Shown here in pieces: positions 36,654-43,352 of a stretch of 64,000 nucleotides of DNA; position 1 is the first letter of the stretch, and every line of letters starts with the position of its first letter. Below the pieces are notes generated by a model. It ran no database searches, was not told where the DNA came from, and saw only the letters and a list, made by a program, of their open reading frames with translations. The position numbers were made by a program, and so were the translations under genes. This DNA comes from a virus (Duplodnaviria > Caudoviricetes): positions 24,799 to 88,798 of the IMG/VR virus record IMGVR_UViG_3300033070_000552; one strand, 5' to 3'.

Positions 36654-36965
36654 TTATCCCGGTTTCGATGTGATGAGTTCGCCGCTGGTGATGTTGCCGT
36701 GCCAGTGGCCCGTCTTTTCCGCGTTGACCGATGGTTCCAAGGTGATCGTCTCGAACGTGTCGCCGGTTCGATTCCAGACCAGACCCTCGACGTGGGGATG
36801 CGGCCACGGAACCCCAAGCCTGGACAACATCGCGTCGTCGAACGAGGGCTTGAACAAAACCGTAATCCGCGTGGCCCGGCAGTGGGGGCACTCGAACGAA
36901 AGCCCGGTTACGGGTCCGTCTGAGAACGCCCTTGTCCATCGCGGATTAAAGTCCGTCAATCGCAT
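36654..36965 (-). CDS. DUF6527-like protein
   Basis: FECPHC...WNRTGDTFETITLEPSV....HWHGNITSG. Confidence 0.6.
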   Translation of the reverse strand: MRLTDFNPRWTRAFSDGPVTGLSFECPHCRATRITVLFKPSFDDAMLSRLGVPWPHPHVEGLVWNRTGDTFETITLEPSVNAEKTGHWHGNITSGELITSKPG

Positions 36966-36974
36966 GGCTTTATC

Positions 36975-37799
36975 CTATCGCCCCACGATCGGCCTCGCCC
37001 CCGCGTCGAAGATTCGTATCTCGCTCTTAATATCGATCGACCCCCGGAGGATCACGGCCCGGGTCGACGGCACCGACAACGCCCCCGCGACCTGGACCTT
37101 CCAGAACTGGTCCTTGGTGCAGAGCCGGTACCCGCGACCCTCGACGAACCACCCTACGCATGGCGAGAGGGGCTTGCCCGGGGCGATGTACTTTGACCAC
37201 GCCTCCATCGTGCGGTGCTGCTTGTACATCGACGGCGACGGAACCCTCCCGGGCATCGCCGTCGATGGCGTGAAGTCGTCGTCCTCGTGGTAGTAGAGCG
37301 ATGGAGAGATTTCGTCCCACCCCTTGGCGAACTCTTCGAGCATCGCGATACGCGACGGCATGAGCGGGGAGTTCTCGCCGTGGATGAGGTACGCCTGGTC
37401 GACGTACGCCGAGAGCGTGAGGTGGGGGTACGCCGCCCTGATCTCGTCCCTCGCGAGCTTCATCTCGCGGAACGGCCACCCCGCCCACTCGTCCCGTTCC
37501 TCGTGGAAGTGAACAACGATTCGGTAGGGGCCCTGCGCCGGGATCAGTATCTTTCGCTTCGACACCGCGACGAAGGGATCGATCGTTAGCGCCTCGGCGA
37601 ACGAGGGGAAGACGGCCCGGTGCCAGTTGGTCATGAACGCCGTCGTCTGGTGGTTGGCCCCCCACGGGGCCGGGGGATGGCCTAGGAAGCCCCCGGAGCG
37701 ATTCGAGATCGCGGTCGCGTATTCGACGGACCTCCCCGTCGAAACGGCAGGGAAAGGCTTGTAGGGGAAGGAAGCGAGGTCGGACGGGTGGTCGGTCAC
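36975..37799 (-). CDS. hypothetical protein, possible TIM-barrel glycoside hydrolase
   Basis: GTG 37799; VVHFHEE, DEISPSLY, AVILRGS weakly recall GH TIM barrels. Confidence 0.4.
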   Translation of the reverse strand: MTDHPSDLASFPYKPFPAVSTGRSVEYATAISNRSGGFLGHPPAPWGANHQTTAFMTNWHRAVFPSFAEALTIDPFVAVSKRKILIPAQGPYRIVVHFHEERDEWAGWPFREMKLARDEIRAAYPHLTLSAYVDQAYLIHGENSPLMPSRIAMLEEFAKGWDEISPSLYYHEDDDFTPSTAMPGRVPSPSMYKQHRTMEAWSKYIAPGKPLSPCVGWFVEGRGYRLCTKDQFWKVQVAGALSVPSTRAVILRGSIDIKSEIRIFDAGARPIVGR

Positions 37800-37818: not shown

Positions 37819-38478
37819 TCAAGTCTTGAGGAAGATCGATCCAAGGAACCCGATGATATTGCCGCTGGGGTCACGCAAGACCCTCGCCTCGGCCCGCACC
37901 TTGATGAACCCCTGCGGTGAAACGAGCCGGTACTCCATCTCGAAGTTGCGGTTCTGGGCCGCCGACGCCTGCCACTCCTCGAACACCGCCGGGCGATCCT
38001 CGGGGTGGATGAACGTGAGCCAGCCGTTGCCCCGTGCGTCCTCGATTGTTTTATCGACCATGCGGAGATACGCGCGGTTGGCCCACTCGCACTTGCCGAA
38101 ACGGTCCGAGCGAAAGAGTGGGTCATCGTGCGTGTCGAGCAGGGCCTCGTACGAGCGGTCCTGGAGCACCTGCGAACGTCGGAGCCCGTCGACCGCATCG
38201 CGGAGCGAGGTGCCCCCGTTGGGAAGAAGCTCCTTCTCGATACGCGAGAGGCGGCCGTTGACGGTTTCTTCCATCCGGTCCATGCGGTCGTTGAACGATG
38301 CTGCGAACTTGATCACGGCAATAGCTCCTTGAACGATCTCGGTCGCGTGCTTTGCGAGAGCGACAATCCGCCCGCCGAACTTCCAGACCGCGACGATGGC
38401 GGTCATCGCCGAGCCCGCGAACACGACGACGATATCGAGGTTGTCCTGAGCCCATCGAAGCGAGGCGAGTAGTGACAT
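37819..38478 (-). CDS. holin-like membrane protein fused to a PAS/PAC domain
   Basis: TM IVVVFAGSAMTAIVAVWKF, ELLPNGGTSLRDAV, then ANRAY...GWLTFIHPEDR...FEMEYRL...RDPSGNIIGFLG. Confidence 0.8.
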   Translation of the reverse strand: MSLLASLRWAQDNLDIVVVFAGSAMTAIVAVWKFGGRIVALAKHATEIVQGAIAVIKFAASFNDRMDRMEETVNGRLSRIEKELLPNGGTSLRDAVDGLRRSQVLQDRSYEALLDTHDDPLFRSDRFGKCEWANRAYLRMVDKTIEDARGNGWLTFIHPEDRPAVFEEWQASAAQNRNFEMEYRLVSPQGFIKVRAEARVLRDPSGNIIGFLGSIFLKT

Positions 38479-38514: not shown

Positions 38515-40824
38515 TCAGGGGCGGGCAGCGACCCACGCCGAGCCGTTGTAGTACACGACCTTGTTGGTGAGCGTCGACCAATTGGTCGAGGGCGAGCCAC
38601 CCGATCCCGCCGACGAGGTGTTGTAGAAGGTGTCTCCCGTGGTCGGGGTCGTCGCGTTGGTCTTGTCGCCCGCCATCTGCAGGTCCTGATGGTTGACGGT
38701 GTAGTAGTCGGTCGACGCCCCGTTGACGATGAGCTGGTTGGTCGTCGTCACGAAACGAAGCCCAGCCCCGCCCGCGATGCGGAAGTTGGGCGAGCCCGCC
38801 GATCCGCCGCAGCGAATGAAGAACGGAATCTGCGCCGCCGAGAACAGCGTGTCGGAGATCAGCAGCGAACCCTTGCCCGCCGCGTCGATGGCGTACGTCG
38901 CGTAGCCGTTCGAGGTCGCGTAGAACGTGCAACCCGACACGTTGAGGTGGCTCGCGGTAGTCGTGTTGCCCCACCGCACGCCCGTCCCCGTGGACATCGT
39001 TGAGCTAAGCGTGCAGTTGCGGATCGTTCCCGAGGTGACGACCCCGCTCCCGCCGATCTGAAAGAGCTTCCCGAGGTTCCCCGTCCTGGCGTAACAGTTG
39101 GAGACGTTGAGCCAGTTCACGGTCCCGAGGATATTGATCAGCGCCGTCTTGAGCGTCGCGTCGTTCGAGGTCTTGAGGTTCTCGATCACGAGCGAGTCCA
39201 TCGCGGCGGTCGTCTCGACGCGAACCCCGTCGGTGTCGTTGGTCAGCGTGAACACGATCGCCGATGCCGAGTTGCCTGGTGAGGTTGAGAGCACCGCCGT
39301 GTTCGCATTGGTCACCGACGAGATCAGATAGTCGCCGAGCGTCGCCCCTGTCCCGGCGGTGATCGTGACGTACTGGCCCGCGTAGGCGCTGGCGAATGCC
39401 CCCGTGCACGTCAGCGTCGTTCCCGGCGAGCCGTTGGTCGTCCCGCCGGTGAACGTCCCGCTCACCGAGAACCGCATACGCACGTTGCGGACGATCGCGT
39501 CCTTGAGCCCCGCCGCCTGCAGGTAGATCGCGACGGTGGTTGACTGCGCCGCCCCGTCCACCCCGTCGATGACGATCCCCGTCATCGGACCGGAGTAAAT
39601 CCCGTTGTTGATGTCGTCGGTGAAGTTGATGAGTGCGCCGTTGGTGATCACGCCCGAGACGTCGCGGATCAGGACGTTGTTGATCCCGTGGTAGCCCGCG
39701 AAGCGGATCGGCTCGTACCCGCCCGAGTTCTGGATGCCGCGAATCGCCACGTCGTCGAACGCCCCGAACCCCGCGTCGTTCGACGACCACCCGTTGACGA
39801 CGAACGCGATGCCCGTGGCCGATGCGCCGGGCGATGTCGCCAGCACGACCGAGTTCGCGTTGGTCACCGACGAGATCAGATAGTCGCCCGCCGTAGCGCC
39901 CGACCCCGTGCGAATCGAAACGTACTGCCCCGCGAATGCGTTGGTGAACGCACCCGTCTTGGTCAGCGTCGTCCCGGGGGCGCTGTTGGTCGTCCCCCCG
40001 GTCTGATCGGTGTAGGTCCCCGCGTAGCCGAAGTACCCGCCCTCGGAGGTCGTGAACCCGATGAGGTTGTCGCCGGTCTTCCCGCTGATGTTCTCGATGA
40101 TGGTGCGGCTAGCGGGTCCCTCAAAGTGAATCCCGTCGCCGCCCGCGATCGCGTTGAGGATCGTCAGGTTCGAGATGTTCGTGTCGTTGGCGTTGGCCAC
40201 GCAGAGCGAGAACTTGTACGATCTGAGGAACCGGCAGTTGCGGACCGTGAGGCGATCGACCCCGACGAAGAACATCCCGTGCCCGAGCCACCTCGCCGAG
40301 CGTGCGGTGTTATTGACGACCGACGACGAGGCCGAGTCGTTGAAGTCCCAGATGCCCCCGTCGATCGTGATCCCCGAGTTGCCCGCCGCCGCGCCGCTGA
40401 TGGTCTGCGACGAGTTGCAGATCGTGTAGCAGTTCGATGAGGCGGCCTTCTTGATCGTCACGCCGTTTGCGATCCGCATCGACGTGTTCGAGTAGATGAT
40501 CAGGCACGAGTTGTACGTGGAGTTGGGCGCGGTGGGGGTCGTCCCCGCCGCCGTGAGGTACTTCGAGACGATATACGTCCCCGGACGGGTGATTGTGACC
40601 TCTCCGCCCCCGGCGGCGTTCACGGCGTCGAGAGTGGCCTGGATCGCGAGTGTCGCGTCGGTCGTGCCGTCCCCGACCGCCCCGTAGCGTGATACGTCGA
40701 GCGAGTAGATCGCCGGGACCGTGCGGACGACACCCGGTCCGGGCTGGGCTTGGAGTCTGGCGATCGGCGTCAAGAGAACGACGAGGGCAATCAGCAGGGG
40801 CGAGAGGGGGTTCGTGTATTTCAT
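38515..40824 (-). CDS. pectin-lyase-fold beta-helix protein with predicted signal peptide
   Basis: MKYTNPLSPLLIALVVLLTPIARLQAQ, then DVSRYGAVGDGTTDATLAIQA and DGIH; internal duplicated domain. Confidence 0.8.
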   Translation of the reverse strand: MKYTNPLSPLLIALVVLLTPIARLQAQPGPGVVRTVPAIYSLDVSRYGAVGDGTTDATLAIQATLDAVNAAGGGEVTITRPGTYIVSKYLTAAGTTPTAPNSTYNSCLIIYSNTSMRIANGVTIKKAASSNCYTICNSSQTISGAAAGNSGITIDGGIWDFNDSASSSVVNNTARSARWLGHGMFFVGVDRLTVRNCRFLRSYKFSLCVANANDTNISNLTILNAIAGGDGIHFEGPASRTIIENISGKTGDNLIGFTTSEGGYFGYAGTYTDQTGGTTNSAPGTTLTKTGAFTNAFAGQYVSIRTGSGATAGDYLISSVTNANSVVLATSPGASATGIAFVVNGWSSNDAGFGAFDDVAIRGIQNSGGYEPIRFAGYHGINNVLIRDVSGVITNGALINFTDDINNGIYSGPMTGIVIDGVDGAAQSTTVAIYLQAAGLKDAIVRNVRMRFSVSGTFTGGTTNGSPGTTLTCTGAFASAYAGQYVTITAGTGATLGDYLISSVTNANTAVLSTSPGNSASAIVFTLTNDTDGVRVETTAAMDSLVIENLKTSNDATLKTALINILGTVNWLNVSNCYARTGNLGKLFQIGGSGVVTSGTIRNCTLSSTMSTGTGVRWGNTTTASHLNVSGCTFYATSNGYATYAIDAAGKGSLLISDTLFSAAQIPFFIRCGGSAGSPNFRIAGGAGLRFVTTTNQLIVNGASTDYYTVNHQDLQMAGDKTNATTPTTGDTFYNTSSAGSGGSPSTNWSTLTNKVVYYNGSAWVAARP

Positions 40825-42196: not shown

Positions 42197-42892
42197 TCAC
42201 TTGGTGGGGGCGACGACGGGGGCGAGCGATCCGATGAGGTTGAGCACGGAGGTTTGCTTGGCGGGGTCCTTGATGAACGTCTGCGCGGCGAGGGAGAGCG
42301 AGCCCACGATGTCATTGGTCGTGAGCTGCCGCGAGTCGAGCACGGCGCTGAACGCCGTCGAGTTGGAGTCGAGTTCTCCAAGAAGCTTGGCGACCTGGGC
42401 GGCGTGGGTATCGAACGCGGCGAGCAGATCGGCCGAGGCTGAATCGAACTGGACGACGGGAGGGAGGCTCGCGATCCTTGCTCGCCTTGCCTCCCGCGCG
42501 TTGGATAGCTTGCCCATCGCGGCGTAGTCGGAGAGAAGCGTGCGGGCCTGGTCGATCGTGAGATGGCCCTGGCGAACCTCGGCCACGATGGGGTTGACGC
42601 TGGTAGGGTCGCTGGCGAGCTTGTCGAGTGCCTTGGGGTCAAAGTCAGAACCGAGCACCAGCCCGTCGGCGATGATGGCCCGCTCGATGTCGCCGGTGAG
42701 GATTACCCGCTTGGCCTGGAGGCACGTCGCGACGAGCGTGCGGGTGAGCGAGAGGTCCATCGCGTACGACGAGGTGAGCTGGTCGCGTGCCGCCCGATCG
42801 CTGGCGAGAACATCACGGGCGGCCGGTGGCGTCGTGCATCCGAAGAACGCGAGGGCGGAGAGGGAGACGAGAACGACGGAGAGGAATCGCAT
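42197..42892 (-). CDS. predicted lipoprotein
   Basis: MRFLSVVLVSLSALAFFG-C lipobox-like signal. Confidence 0.75.
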   Translation of the reverse strand: MRFLSVVLVSLSALAFFGCTTPPAARDVLASDRAARDQLTSSYAMDLSLTRTLVATCLQAKRVILTGDIERAIIADGLVLGSDFDPKALDKLASDPTSVNPIVAEVRQGHLTIDQARTLLSDYAAMGKLSNAREARRARIASLPPVVQFDSASADLLAAFDTHAAQVAKLLGELDSNSTAFSAVLDSRQLTTNDIVGSLSLAAQTFIKDPAKQTSVLNLIGSLAPVVAPTK

Positions 42893-42931: not shown

Positions 42932-43279
42932 CTACCTGGGCTTGACGGCTAGCGGATCGATGACCTTCACCTCGACATCGTTAGCGATGCTCGACGCCTT
43001 GACATCGCCGACGTGATCGGCAACGACATCCATGATCGCGTCGGCCTTCTGGGCGACGATCCTGGTATCGCCCGATTGCGACGACTTGAGCGACGCGATG
43101 AGCGCGACGAACGCGACGACCCCCGCGACGATCTTGTCGATATCCCCGGCGTCGGCGAACTTGTAGAGCCCGACCGAGATGCCAGCGCCGATCAGCCATC
43201 GAATCGCCGAACCGATCAGGGCCTTGCCCTCGGGAGTACGCGGGTCGATATTGAGGTTGAGCAGTGGAATCCTGATCAT
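42932..43279 (-). CDS. holin-like two-TM membrane protein
   Basis: TM segments LIGSAIRWLIGAGISVGLY and IVAGVVAFVALIASL. Confidence 0.6.
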   Translation of the reverse strand: MIRIPLLNLNIDPRTPEGKALIGSAIRWLIGAGISVGLYKFADAGDIDKIVAGVVAFVALIASLKSSQSGDTRIVAQKADAIMDVVADHVGDVKASSIANDVEVKVIDPLAVKPR

Positions 43280-43352
43280 GGTGGCCTTTCGTCTTGCCGA
43301 CGGATGAGACGCCATCATCATAACACACGGGCTGATTCAGGCAAACCCGACA

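Follow-up and report, generated by a model that had tools for sequence, protein, structure and literature searches.

A phage gene joining the membrane module of a lysis-cassette protein family to a PAS domain, a candidate regulator of lysis timing

The timing of lysis sets the burst size and the fitness of a phage. The textbook case of signal-responsive timing is the lysis inhibition of T4, which involves the holin T and the antiholin RI, and apart from T4-type lysis inhibition we know of little work on how signals tune the moment of lysis. T4 T is a class III holin of about 218 amino acids, in which one transmembrane domain (TMD) is joined to a large globular domain that retimes lysis on an external cue.

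Single-TMD proteins of another design have been described from mycobacteriophages. According to two reports, LysF1b and LysA2b each have one TMD, an N-out/C-in orientation and a helical, charged cytoplasmic tail; phages deleted for lysF1b or lysA2b show severe defects in lysis, LysF1b makes good the deletion of lysA2b in D29, and the authors' proposal is activation of a 2-TMD partner by the 1-TMD protein (PMC13056207; bioRxiv 10.64898/2026.08.27.747656). The same reports identify LysF1b as Girr gp35 / NormanBulbieJr gp33 (Ms6 gene 27) and place the gene for LysA2b (D29 gp30) with the tail genes and not with those for the lysins (PMC13056207; bioRxiv 10.64898/2026.08.27.747656), and one of them states that F1 phages keeping only lysF1b are still lysis competent (PMC13056207). 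A phage-encoded PAS domain is known from VqmA-Phage of vibriophage VP882, a soluble transcription factor and quorum-sensing receptor that combines PAS with HTH and acts in a lysogeny-lysis switch (PMC8284805). A search of the literature on PAS domains with holins or phage lysis found no description of the fusion reported here.

We analysed a 64,000-nt stretch of DNA, hereafter the window, which comprises bases 24799-88798 of an 88,798-bp IMG/VR virus record from an uncultured phage (GC 63.7%; CheckV completeness 100%) whose minus strand carries nearly all genes. Within the window lies a gene for a 219-residue protein that is a concrete candidate for a sensor domain joined to a lysis-cassette membrane module. 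Its features, and those of the genes discussed with it, are collected in Table 1.

Table 1. Coordinates of the PAS gene, its parts and other genes of the same phage. Positions are those of the window unless stated otherwise.
Feature	Position	Strand	Evidence or remark
Complete 219-aa gene: TM helix, then a helical linker bearing the PNGG motif, then PAS	37819..38478	(-)	ORF list, ATG start; also called as a gene in the protein collection (P0001)
Single N-terminal TM helix, about aa 14-36, predicted N-out/C-in	38371..38439	(-)	Hydropathy scans
Signature E83-L-L-P-N-G-G-T-S-L-R-D94, break between two long helices	38197..38232	(-)	Alignments A1, A3, A7; PHROG; AF2
PAS domain, PAS_3 type, about aa 110-214, predicted cytoplasmic	37837..38151	(-)	Pfam, AF2, Foldseek
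Upstream gene, 36 nt away: 769-aa beta-helix tailspike-like protein, signal-peptide-like N-terminus	38515..40824	(-)	PHROG 2234
Downstream gene, 19 nt away: 274-aa protein, GTG start	36975..37799	(-)	Start agrees with collection gene call P0165
DUF6527 gene, two genes downstream	36654..36965	(-)	Pfam DUF6527 E=3.9e-6; PHROGs 34484, 15183
Upstream 231-aa protein, lipobox-like N-terminus (LAFFGC), envelope-targeted	42197-42892	(-)	
129-aa protein, internal TM helix, precedes the 231-aa lipoprotein-like gene	42932-43321	(-)	
68-aa protein, two hydrophobic helices, 4-bp overlap with next gene	L329:3035-3241 = genome 14034-14240, outside window	(-)	

Anatomy, origin and predicted topology of the 219-residue protein

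The reading frame has a strong coding signature, with GC by codon position of 0.63/0.42/0.81 matching the genome's other genes, and it carries all of the landmarks listed for it in the initial annotation, with NRAY, GW..IHPEDR, EYRL and RDPSGNIIGFLG present. Its anatomy is far beyond chance, a profile of the N-terminal module (the first 90-110 residues) having matched 1110 proteins at E<=1e-3 among 1.84 billion cluster representatives, and we conclude that it is a real gene. It is single copy, no second PNGG gene being found in the phage's own genome, and a scan for promoters and terminators gave background level only. The closest homologues (P0002-P0006) are 52-72% identical to the 219-residue protein, a metagenome scan returned relatives of <=35% identity only, and tblastn of the protein, as well as of a PAS-fused relative from locus L143, found no match in 50,697 cultured-phage records.

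The C-terminal part of the protein is a PAS domain, matched by Pfam PAS_3 (PF08447) over aa 133-214 at E=1.9e-13 (50.9 bits vs a gathering cut-off of 25.6), by PAS (PF00989) at E=3.7e-11 (43.5 bits vs 22.6) and by PAS_4 at 28.8 bits vs 23.1. An AF2 model, built from a 15-sequence alignment, shows PAS topology with pLDDT 87-94 over aa 110-219, in which a five-stranded sheet (residues 121-125, 130-133, 179-187, 190-202 and 208-217) has helices between the strands. Foldseek gave probability 1.0 to PAS, LOV, HIF-ARNT, DosP and FixL structures, and a profile search of PDB sequences matched the PAS domains of phytochrome A, a GGDEF protein and WalK. The protein ends GSIFLKT, 5-6 residues past the last PAS strand, and there is therefore no output domain; the earlier description of a complete PAS_3-type domain standing without one is borne out by the full Pfam match and by the position of the stop codon.

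The initial annotation had further supposed that this domain senses redox, a ligand or light, a proposal for which the family offers no flavin (LOV) or conserved haem-ligand signature. The LOV motif NC[RK]F[LM] (NCRFL type) occurs in none of 76 PAS-fused members, and His158, a possible haem ligand, is kept in only 28 of 71, so that a LOV or haem sensor was ruled out. The positions that are conserved (G128, W153, W169, R162, R177, G210 and G213) are structural features of the PAS_3 family. It is possible that the role of the domain is purely oligomerising; a two-copy complex prediction of aa 62-219 scored 0.02, which is evidence neither for nor against.

A PAS domain in a phage genome might be a piece of a host kinase, and homology to fragments of host histidine kinases had been named at the outset as an outcome that would undo the annotation. 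When checked, the protein and its relatives proved to be whole phage genes. In bacterial genomes, across many phyla, the PAS part matches histidine kinases with several domains as well as GGDEF/EAL proteins at 30-45% identity, with the same fold and Pfam family, and the matched bacterial proteins do not have the N-terminal module. The nearest ESM-Atlas clusters consist of PAS proteins of 183-228 aa and are 99-100% viral, one of them with 1142 members. The fusion of the PNGG module to PAS is therefore recurrent and virus-specific, not a kinase fragment. In contrast to the bacterial PAS_3 proteins, which carry kinase, cyclase or other outputs, this one has no such domain and is the product of a complete 219-aa gene on a viral genome; neither its own reading frame nor the following one contains HisKA/HATPase or another output domain, and the next gene is unrelated. 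A host kinase fragment was accordingly ruled out by the stop 5 residues after PAS, the unrelated next gene and the viral record.

At the other end of the protein, hydropathy gives one hydrophobic segment, in agreement with the single N-terminal TM helix originally described. A clear TMD is evident in 264 family members, and in 259 of them the C-terminal flank is more basic than the N-terminal flank; over all 264 the means are 3.18 and 0.24 K+R, respectively, in the 15 residues on each side; the 219-residue protein itself has three on the C side and one on the N side. By the positive-inside rule the short N-tail is therefore predicted to lie outside, in the periplasm, and the PNGG motif and the PAS domain in the cytoplasm. 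The cytoplasm is the usual location of canonical PAS domains.

This arrangement differs from those of canonical holins, of which classes I and II have three or two TMDs and class III is N-in/C-out with a periplasmic globular domain. The comparison with T4 T is accordingly one of size and plan. T4 T is N-in/C-out, its globular domain is periplasmic and its signal arrives via a second protein, whereas the protein described here has the opposite predicted topology and a cytoplasmic PAS domain, and no sequence relation was seen between the two. A T4 T-like class III holin was ruled out on the opposite predicted topology. VqmA-Phage shares with the present protein a phage-encoded PAS domain, which in VqmA-Phage reads a small molecule and takes part in deciding when the host dies; here, by contrast, there is a TM anchor and no DNA-binding domain, and the protein would act post-translationally at the membrane.

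The PNGG family and its genomic contexts

Between the TM helix and the PAS domain lies a helical linker interrupted by the PNGG signature. PHROG 9869, whose function is not annotated, matches aa 21-101 at E=1.8e-5, and the motif ELxPNGGxSLRD is invariant or nearly so in every alignment made; in close homologues (30-72% identity, 183-220 aa) E83, P86, N87, G88, G89, S91, L92, R93 and D94 are invariant. AF2 places low-confidence long helices at residues 3-33, 39-84 and 92-115, with a break at PNGGTSL (85-91). The assignment of the N-terminal module to PHROG 9869, a family of single-pass phage membrane proteins with the sequence motif ELxPNGGxS[LIM][RK]D, is secure.

The family comes in two forms. 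About half of the best 150 of the 1110 profile matches are stand-alone proteins of 60-140 aa and about half are PAS fusions of ~180-245 aa. Of 159 family proteins collected (P0001-P0159), 76 are short, mostly 75-140 aa, and 83 have >=150 aa, 75 of the latter (about 180-245 aa) carrying a PAS domain. A word-based search with aa 1-110 found no short stand-alone relatives, which came to light only with the exhaustive profile search. At least 120 loci in IMG/VR (L094-L213) match a DNA pattern of the motif, and 118 of the 120 listed encode tiny proteins of 63-100 aa in which a TM helix is followed by WLVKHYLxELKPNGGSSxKD and then a short helix; those of 63-72 aa are extremely abundant.

Stand-alone members are found in lysis cassettes. 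In one locus (L010) an endolysin gene (PHROG 13480, E=1.5e-34) is followed by, and overlaps, the gene for a 105-aa stand-alone member (PHROG 9869, E=1.2e-17), which also has a weak match to 'holin' PHROG 15431 (E=1.7e-4). The order in Streptomyces phage mu1/6 is endolysin gp50, holin gp51 and then member gp52 (family HMM E=3e-20), that in phage TurkishDelight is tailspike, hypothetical gene, endolysin, holin and member gp37, and in Thermobifida phage P1312 member gene 040 is followed by an amidase; the family HMM gave E=1e-14 to 6e-21 on the proteins of these three phages. The PNGG protein of P1312 (L092:4851-5294) appears in GenBank under the apparent misannotation 'sensory protein kinase CreC'.

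Among the 108 genes directly downstream of the listed tiny IMG/VR members, endolysin PHROGs reached tallies of 12, 7 and 3 (the tally of 12 applying to each of three PHROG families, apparently for the same proteins), tail-lysozyme families 9 and lysin-activity 5. The gene upstream of the listed tiny members encodes a 630-750-aa protein (PHROG 11667, 35 cases) or, alternatively, a 60-67-aa TM protein (PHROG 37724, 26 cases), the latter usually with a 4-bp overlap, and an overlapping small TM partner lies directly upstream in 29 of them. A separate observation is that PHROG 32486 lies directly downstream in 20 of the 108, and may be an unrecognised lysis gene.

A lysis role for the stand-alone module is thus well supported by synteny, and it is moderately supported by remote homology to the mycobacteriophage proteins. 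An hhalign comparison of nine LysF1b/LysA2b-family sequences with the PNGG module gave 86.5% probability and E=4.6e-6 over 47 columns, and placed NtH.tNLRDD in register with PNGGsSLRDA; D29 gp30 itself contains KIDSQVSNSHDENLRDEI, and its relatives carry NtH.tNLRDD. The motif alone gave 37%, and the controls gave 2.1% (reversed) and 0.2% (unrelated small-TM proteins). A direct family-HMM search of D29 gp30 reached 5.2 bits, which is not significant. The link is moderate, and homology of the PNGG module to LysF1b/LysA2b is probable but unproven; the stand-alone members, with their lysis-cassette function, are probably distant kin of the mycobacteriophage proteins. Many LysA2b/LysF1b-family genes (L323, L324 and L326; the D29 gp30 family) are annotated, apparently wrongly, as 'minor tail protein'.

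The likeness extends to layout and gene order. Both families have one N-terminal TMD, a predicted N-out/C-in topology with basic residues after the TMD, and a helical cytoplasmic part with the motif N-x-x-x-(x)-[SN]-L-R-D aligning in register; the gene often has a 4-bp overlap with a small TM holin-like gene and may, like that of D29 gp30, sit in the tail region at a distance from the lysins. As judged from sequence, the PNGG protein would work like the LysF1b/LysA2b family in topology and synteny. There are also differences. LysF1b/LysA2b have a short, highly charged C-terminal helix, and the cytoplasmic helix of LysF1b is >50% KRHDE with no globular domain, whereas here a linker (aa 37-110) with 31% charged residues is followed by a 110-aa PAS domain; nor is there an adjacent 2-TMD partner in the window.

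These comparisons bear on the two claims first made for the N-terminal module. Its signature, given as ELxxNGGxSLRDAV, was correctly recognised as that of small phage membrane proteins, and proves to be a hallmark of lysis-cassette members. The label of a holin-like anchor fits less well, the module resembling the 1-TMD, N-out/C-in regulators LysF1b and LysA2b more than a canonical holin. We nevertheless considered that the protein might itself be the holin, a new kind of single-TMD, N-out/C-in hole-former whose oligomerisation is gated by PAS. Many tiny members lie between a large gene of tail-fibre size and an endolysin gene and have no further TM gene as a neighbour, an arrangement shared with the T7 holin; a PAS-fused member described below (L009) occupies the position of the T7 holin, and the L010 member has its weak holin match (PHROG 15431, E=1.7e-4). 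The reported lysis competence of F1 phages with lysF1b alone (PMC13056207) points the same way. Against this, the annotated actinophages have a separate holin gene alongside the module, 29 listed tiny members have the overlapping upstream TM partner, the LysF1b/LysA2b authors favour a regulator model, and one TM helix with a 180-aa soluble domain is atypical of known hole-formers with this topology. We regard a hole-forming role as quite unlikely.

The PAS-fused members, sampled as 16 clades, have more varied surroundings. In the T7-like locus L009 the order is internal virion protein, 825-aa gene, member, TerS and TerL, a position that we take from the T7 map to be the slot of the T7 holin gp17.5. 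In locus L143 the member stands between genes for a 103-aa protein with 3 TM helices and a 153-aa TM protein, after which comes an endolysin (E=9e-23), and in L153 the member is followed by a 117-aa gene with 2 TM helices. The L220 member has a 1519-aa protein on one side and tail-fibre genes on the other, that of L218 precedes a head-closure gene, and the remaining ones are among tail-fibre, head-closure or packaging genes. Pfam tallies over the six genes nearest to the members of the 16 clades revealed no endolysin enrichment, with two weak CHAP matches, the other tallies being terminase, portal, adaptor and tail genes; tblastn of 18 neighbours from the window against all PAS-fused loci found no shared neighbours. 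The synteny survey called for at the outset therefore gives a divided answer: stand-alone members lie in lysis cassettes, but PAS-fused ones only sometimes lie beside lysis genes.

That most PAS-fused members are not beside recognised lysis genes would also be expected if the protein acted on host signalling, apart from lysis. Acting as a decoy or modulator, the tethered PAS domain might heterodimerise with PAS kinases or c-di-GMP enzymes of the host; alternatively it might report the state of infection to some other process, of which superinfection exclusion is an example. Heterodimers between PAS domains are well documented, and one of them, HIF-ARNT, is among the fold matches; the domain is 30-45% identical to the PAS domains of host kinases and GGDEF/EAL proteins, and its structural neighbours in the Atlas are such kinases. 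However, a signalling role of this sort leaves unexplained both the repeated and specific fusion of PAS to a lysis-cassette module and the lysis-slot positions of the L143, L153 and L009 members, and it points to no specific host partner. Taken together, the two variants are in our judgement fairly unlikely.

Proposed function of the fusion

Since the module is found in lysis cassettes, the PAS domain is complete and the gene is a whole phage gene, signal-tuned lysis is the leading hypothesis. The reading that we favour, and hold to be slightly likelier right than wrong, is a lysis-timing regulator in which PAS is a cytoplasmic input or oligomerisation domain. The signal-responsive lysis timer proposed in the initial annotation survives in this form through the membership of the module in a lysis-cassette family, while the lysis context at this locus is unproven. 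We infer a role of this gene in lysis, signal sensing by its PAS domain and the nature of its partner.

In such a regulator the short N-tail would face the periplasm and the TM helix would anchor the protein. The cytoplasmic helix-PNGG-helix would engage a hole-forming or 2-TMD partner, or would self-assemble, and would thereby determine when the membrane is permeabilised. At the C-terminus, PAS would stand in for the short charged tail of the stand-alone forms, and as a cytoplasmic input or dimerisation module it could bias permeabilisation by a cue from the state of the host (metabolite, redox or energy state).

The fusion is abundant, accounting for about half of the best 150 family clusters and for one Atlas cluster of 1142 members. 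A broader reading, which we put forward tentatively and think somewhat doubtful, is that a widespread, virus-only family of lysis regulators captured PAS and that many uncultured phages retime or gate lysis post-translationally on an intracellular cue. If it were true, the cue might be, for example, energy or redox state, a metabolite or light, and the protein would be a single-protein equivalent of T4 lysis inhibition, operating from inside the cell. The analysis also ties a huge unannotated family of tiny membrane proteins, PHROG 9869 and the 63-72-aa proteins from IMG/VR, to the newly defined LysF1b/LysA2b regulators, and this tie suggests that their mechanism reaches far beyond actinophages. 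As tools, PNGG-PAS modules could serve as ligand-gated lysis switches.

Gene neighbourhood in this phage

The gene had been placed in a membrane- or lysis-like block, a description that its neighbours do not sustain: they encode a beta-helix protein and a possible glycosidase, and no recognised endolysin or holin adjoins the PAS gene in the window. The 769-aa upstream protein matches the tail spike family PHROG 2234 at E=7e-15, with a weak pectate-lyase-like Pfam match, and has a hydrophobic segment at aa 4-22; its N-terminus (MKYTNPLSPLLIALVVLLTPIARLQAQ) points more to an exported glycanase than to a spike of the virion. The close spacing of this gene, the PAS gene and the 274-aa gene (Table 1) means that the three are probably co-transcribed, and the tight packing of the PAS gene, with the glycanase-like beta-helix gene and its signal peptide on one side and a possible glycosidase on the other, is supporting evidence for the lysis-timing reading.

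A position behind a tailspike-like gene might instead indicate a virion or tail-associated accessory protein, and the L220 and L218 members do lie near tail-fibre and head-closure genes, just as 'minor tail protein' is a frequent annotation in the D29 gp30 family. Those labels are positional, however, and D29 gp30 is genetically a lysis regulator. Virion proteins are not built as a TM anchor carrying cytoplasmic PAS, and the T7 holin also follows a tail-fibre gene. A virion role seems to us very improbable.

The 274-aa downstream neighbour belongs to an unannotated family with 8 homologues, and searches of Pfam, PHROG and PDB sequences gave no match, nor did Foldseek at E<=0.001. Its AF2 model (pLDDT 58) aligned in VIA-align to GH5, PgaB, GH20 and GH56 barrels with Z 6.0-6.8, a range that the tool calls common, and the Atlas gave a lead to a GH56-containing cluster; the protein thus weakly resembles, and is possibly, a TIM-barrel glycoside hydrolase. 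Pfam searches of the whole 88,798-bp genome for Amidase_2, Phage_lysozyme, SLT, GH25, PG_binding_1 and Peptidase_M15_4 found none, and GH19 and GH108 were likewise absent, uninformatively so, as control genomes also had none. With CheckV completeness at 100%, these Pfam-family searches leave this phage with an endolysin of some unrecognised type. Since no recognised endolysin family is present in the genome, the 274-aa neighbour is a candidate lytic enzyme, perhaps a novel endolysin or glycanase, and no more. A homologue of this neighbour (P0168) and a PAS homologue (P0004) each come from a contig 8673 bp long, which suggests that their adjacency is conserved.

The only small 2-TM gene seen in the genome lies about 49 kb from the PAS gene (Table 1), and its 68-aa product is the only pinholin- or LysF1a-like candidate partner; PDB-sequence searches with the two genes beside it returned nothing. 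Two further genes upstream of the PAS gene encode the lipoprotein-like and TM proteins listed in Table 1. Farther downstream come the DUF6527 gene, small genes of no assigned function, GroES, a methylase, TerL, portal and head genes. In locus L223 the second gene after a PAS-fused member (L223:7218-7670) matches PHROG 15183, as the DUF6527 gene of the window does, and the order PAS gene, one intervening gene, DUF6527-like gene may therefore be recurrent.
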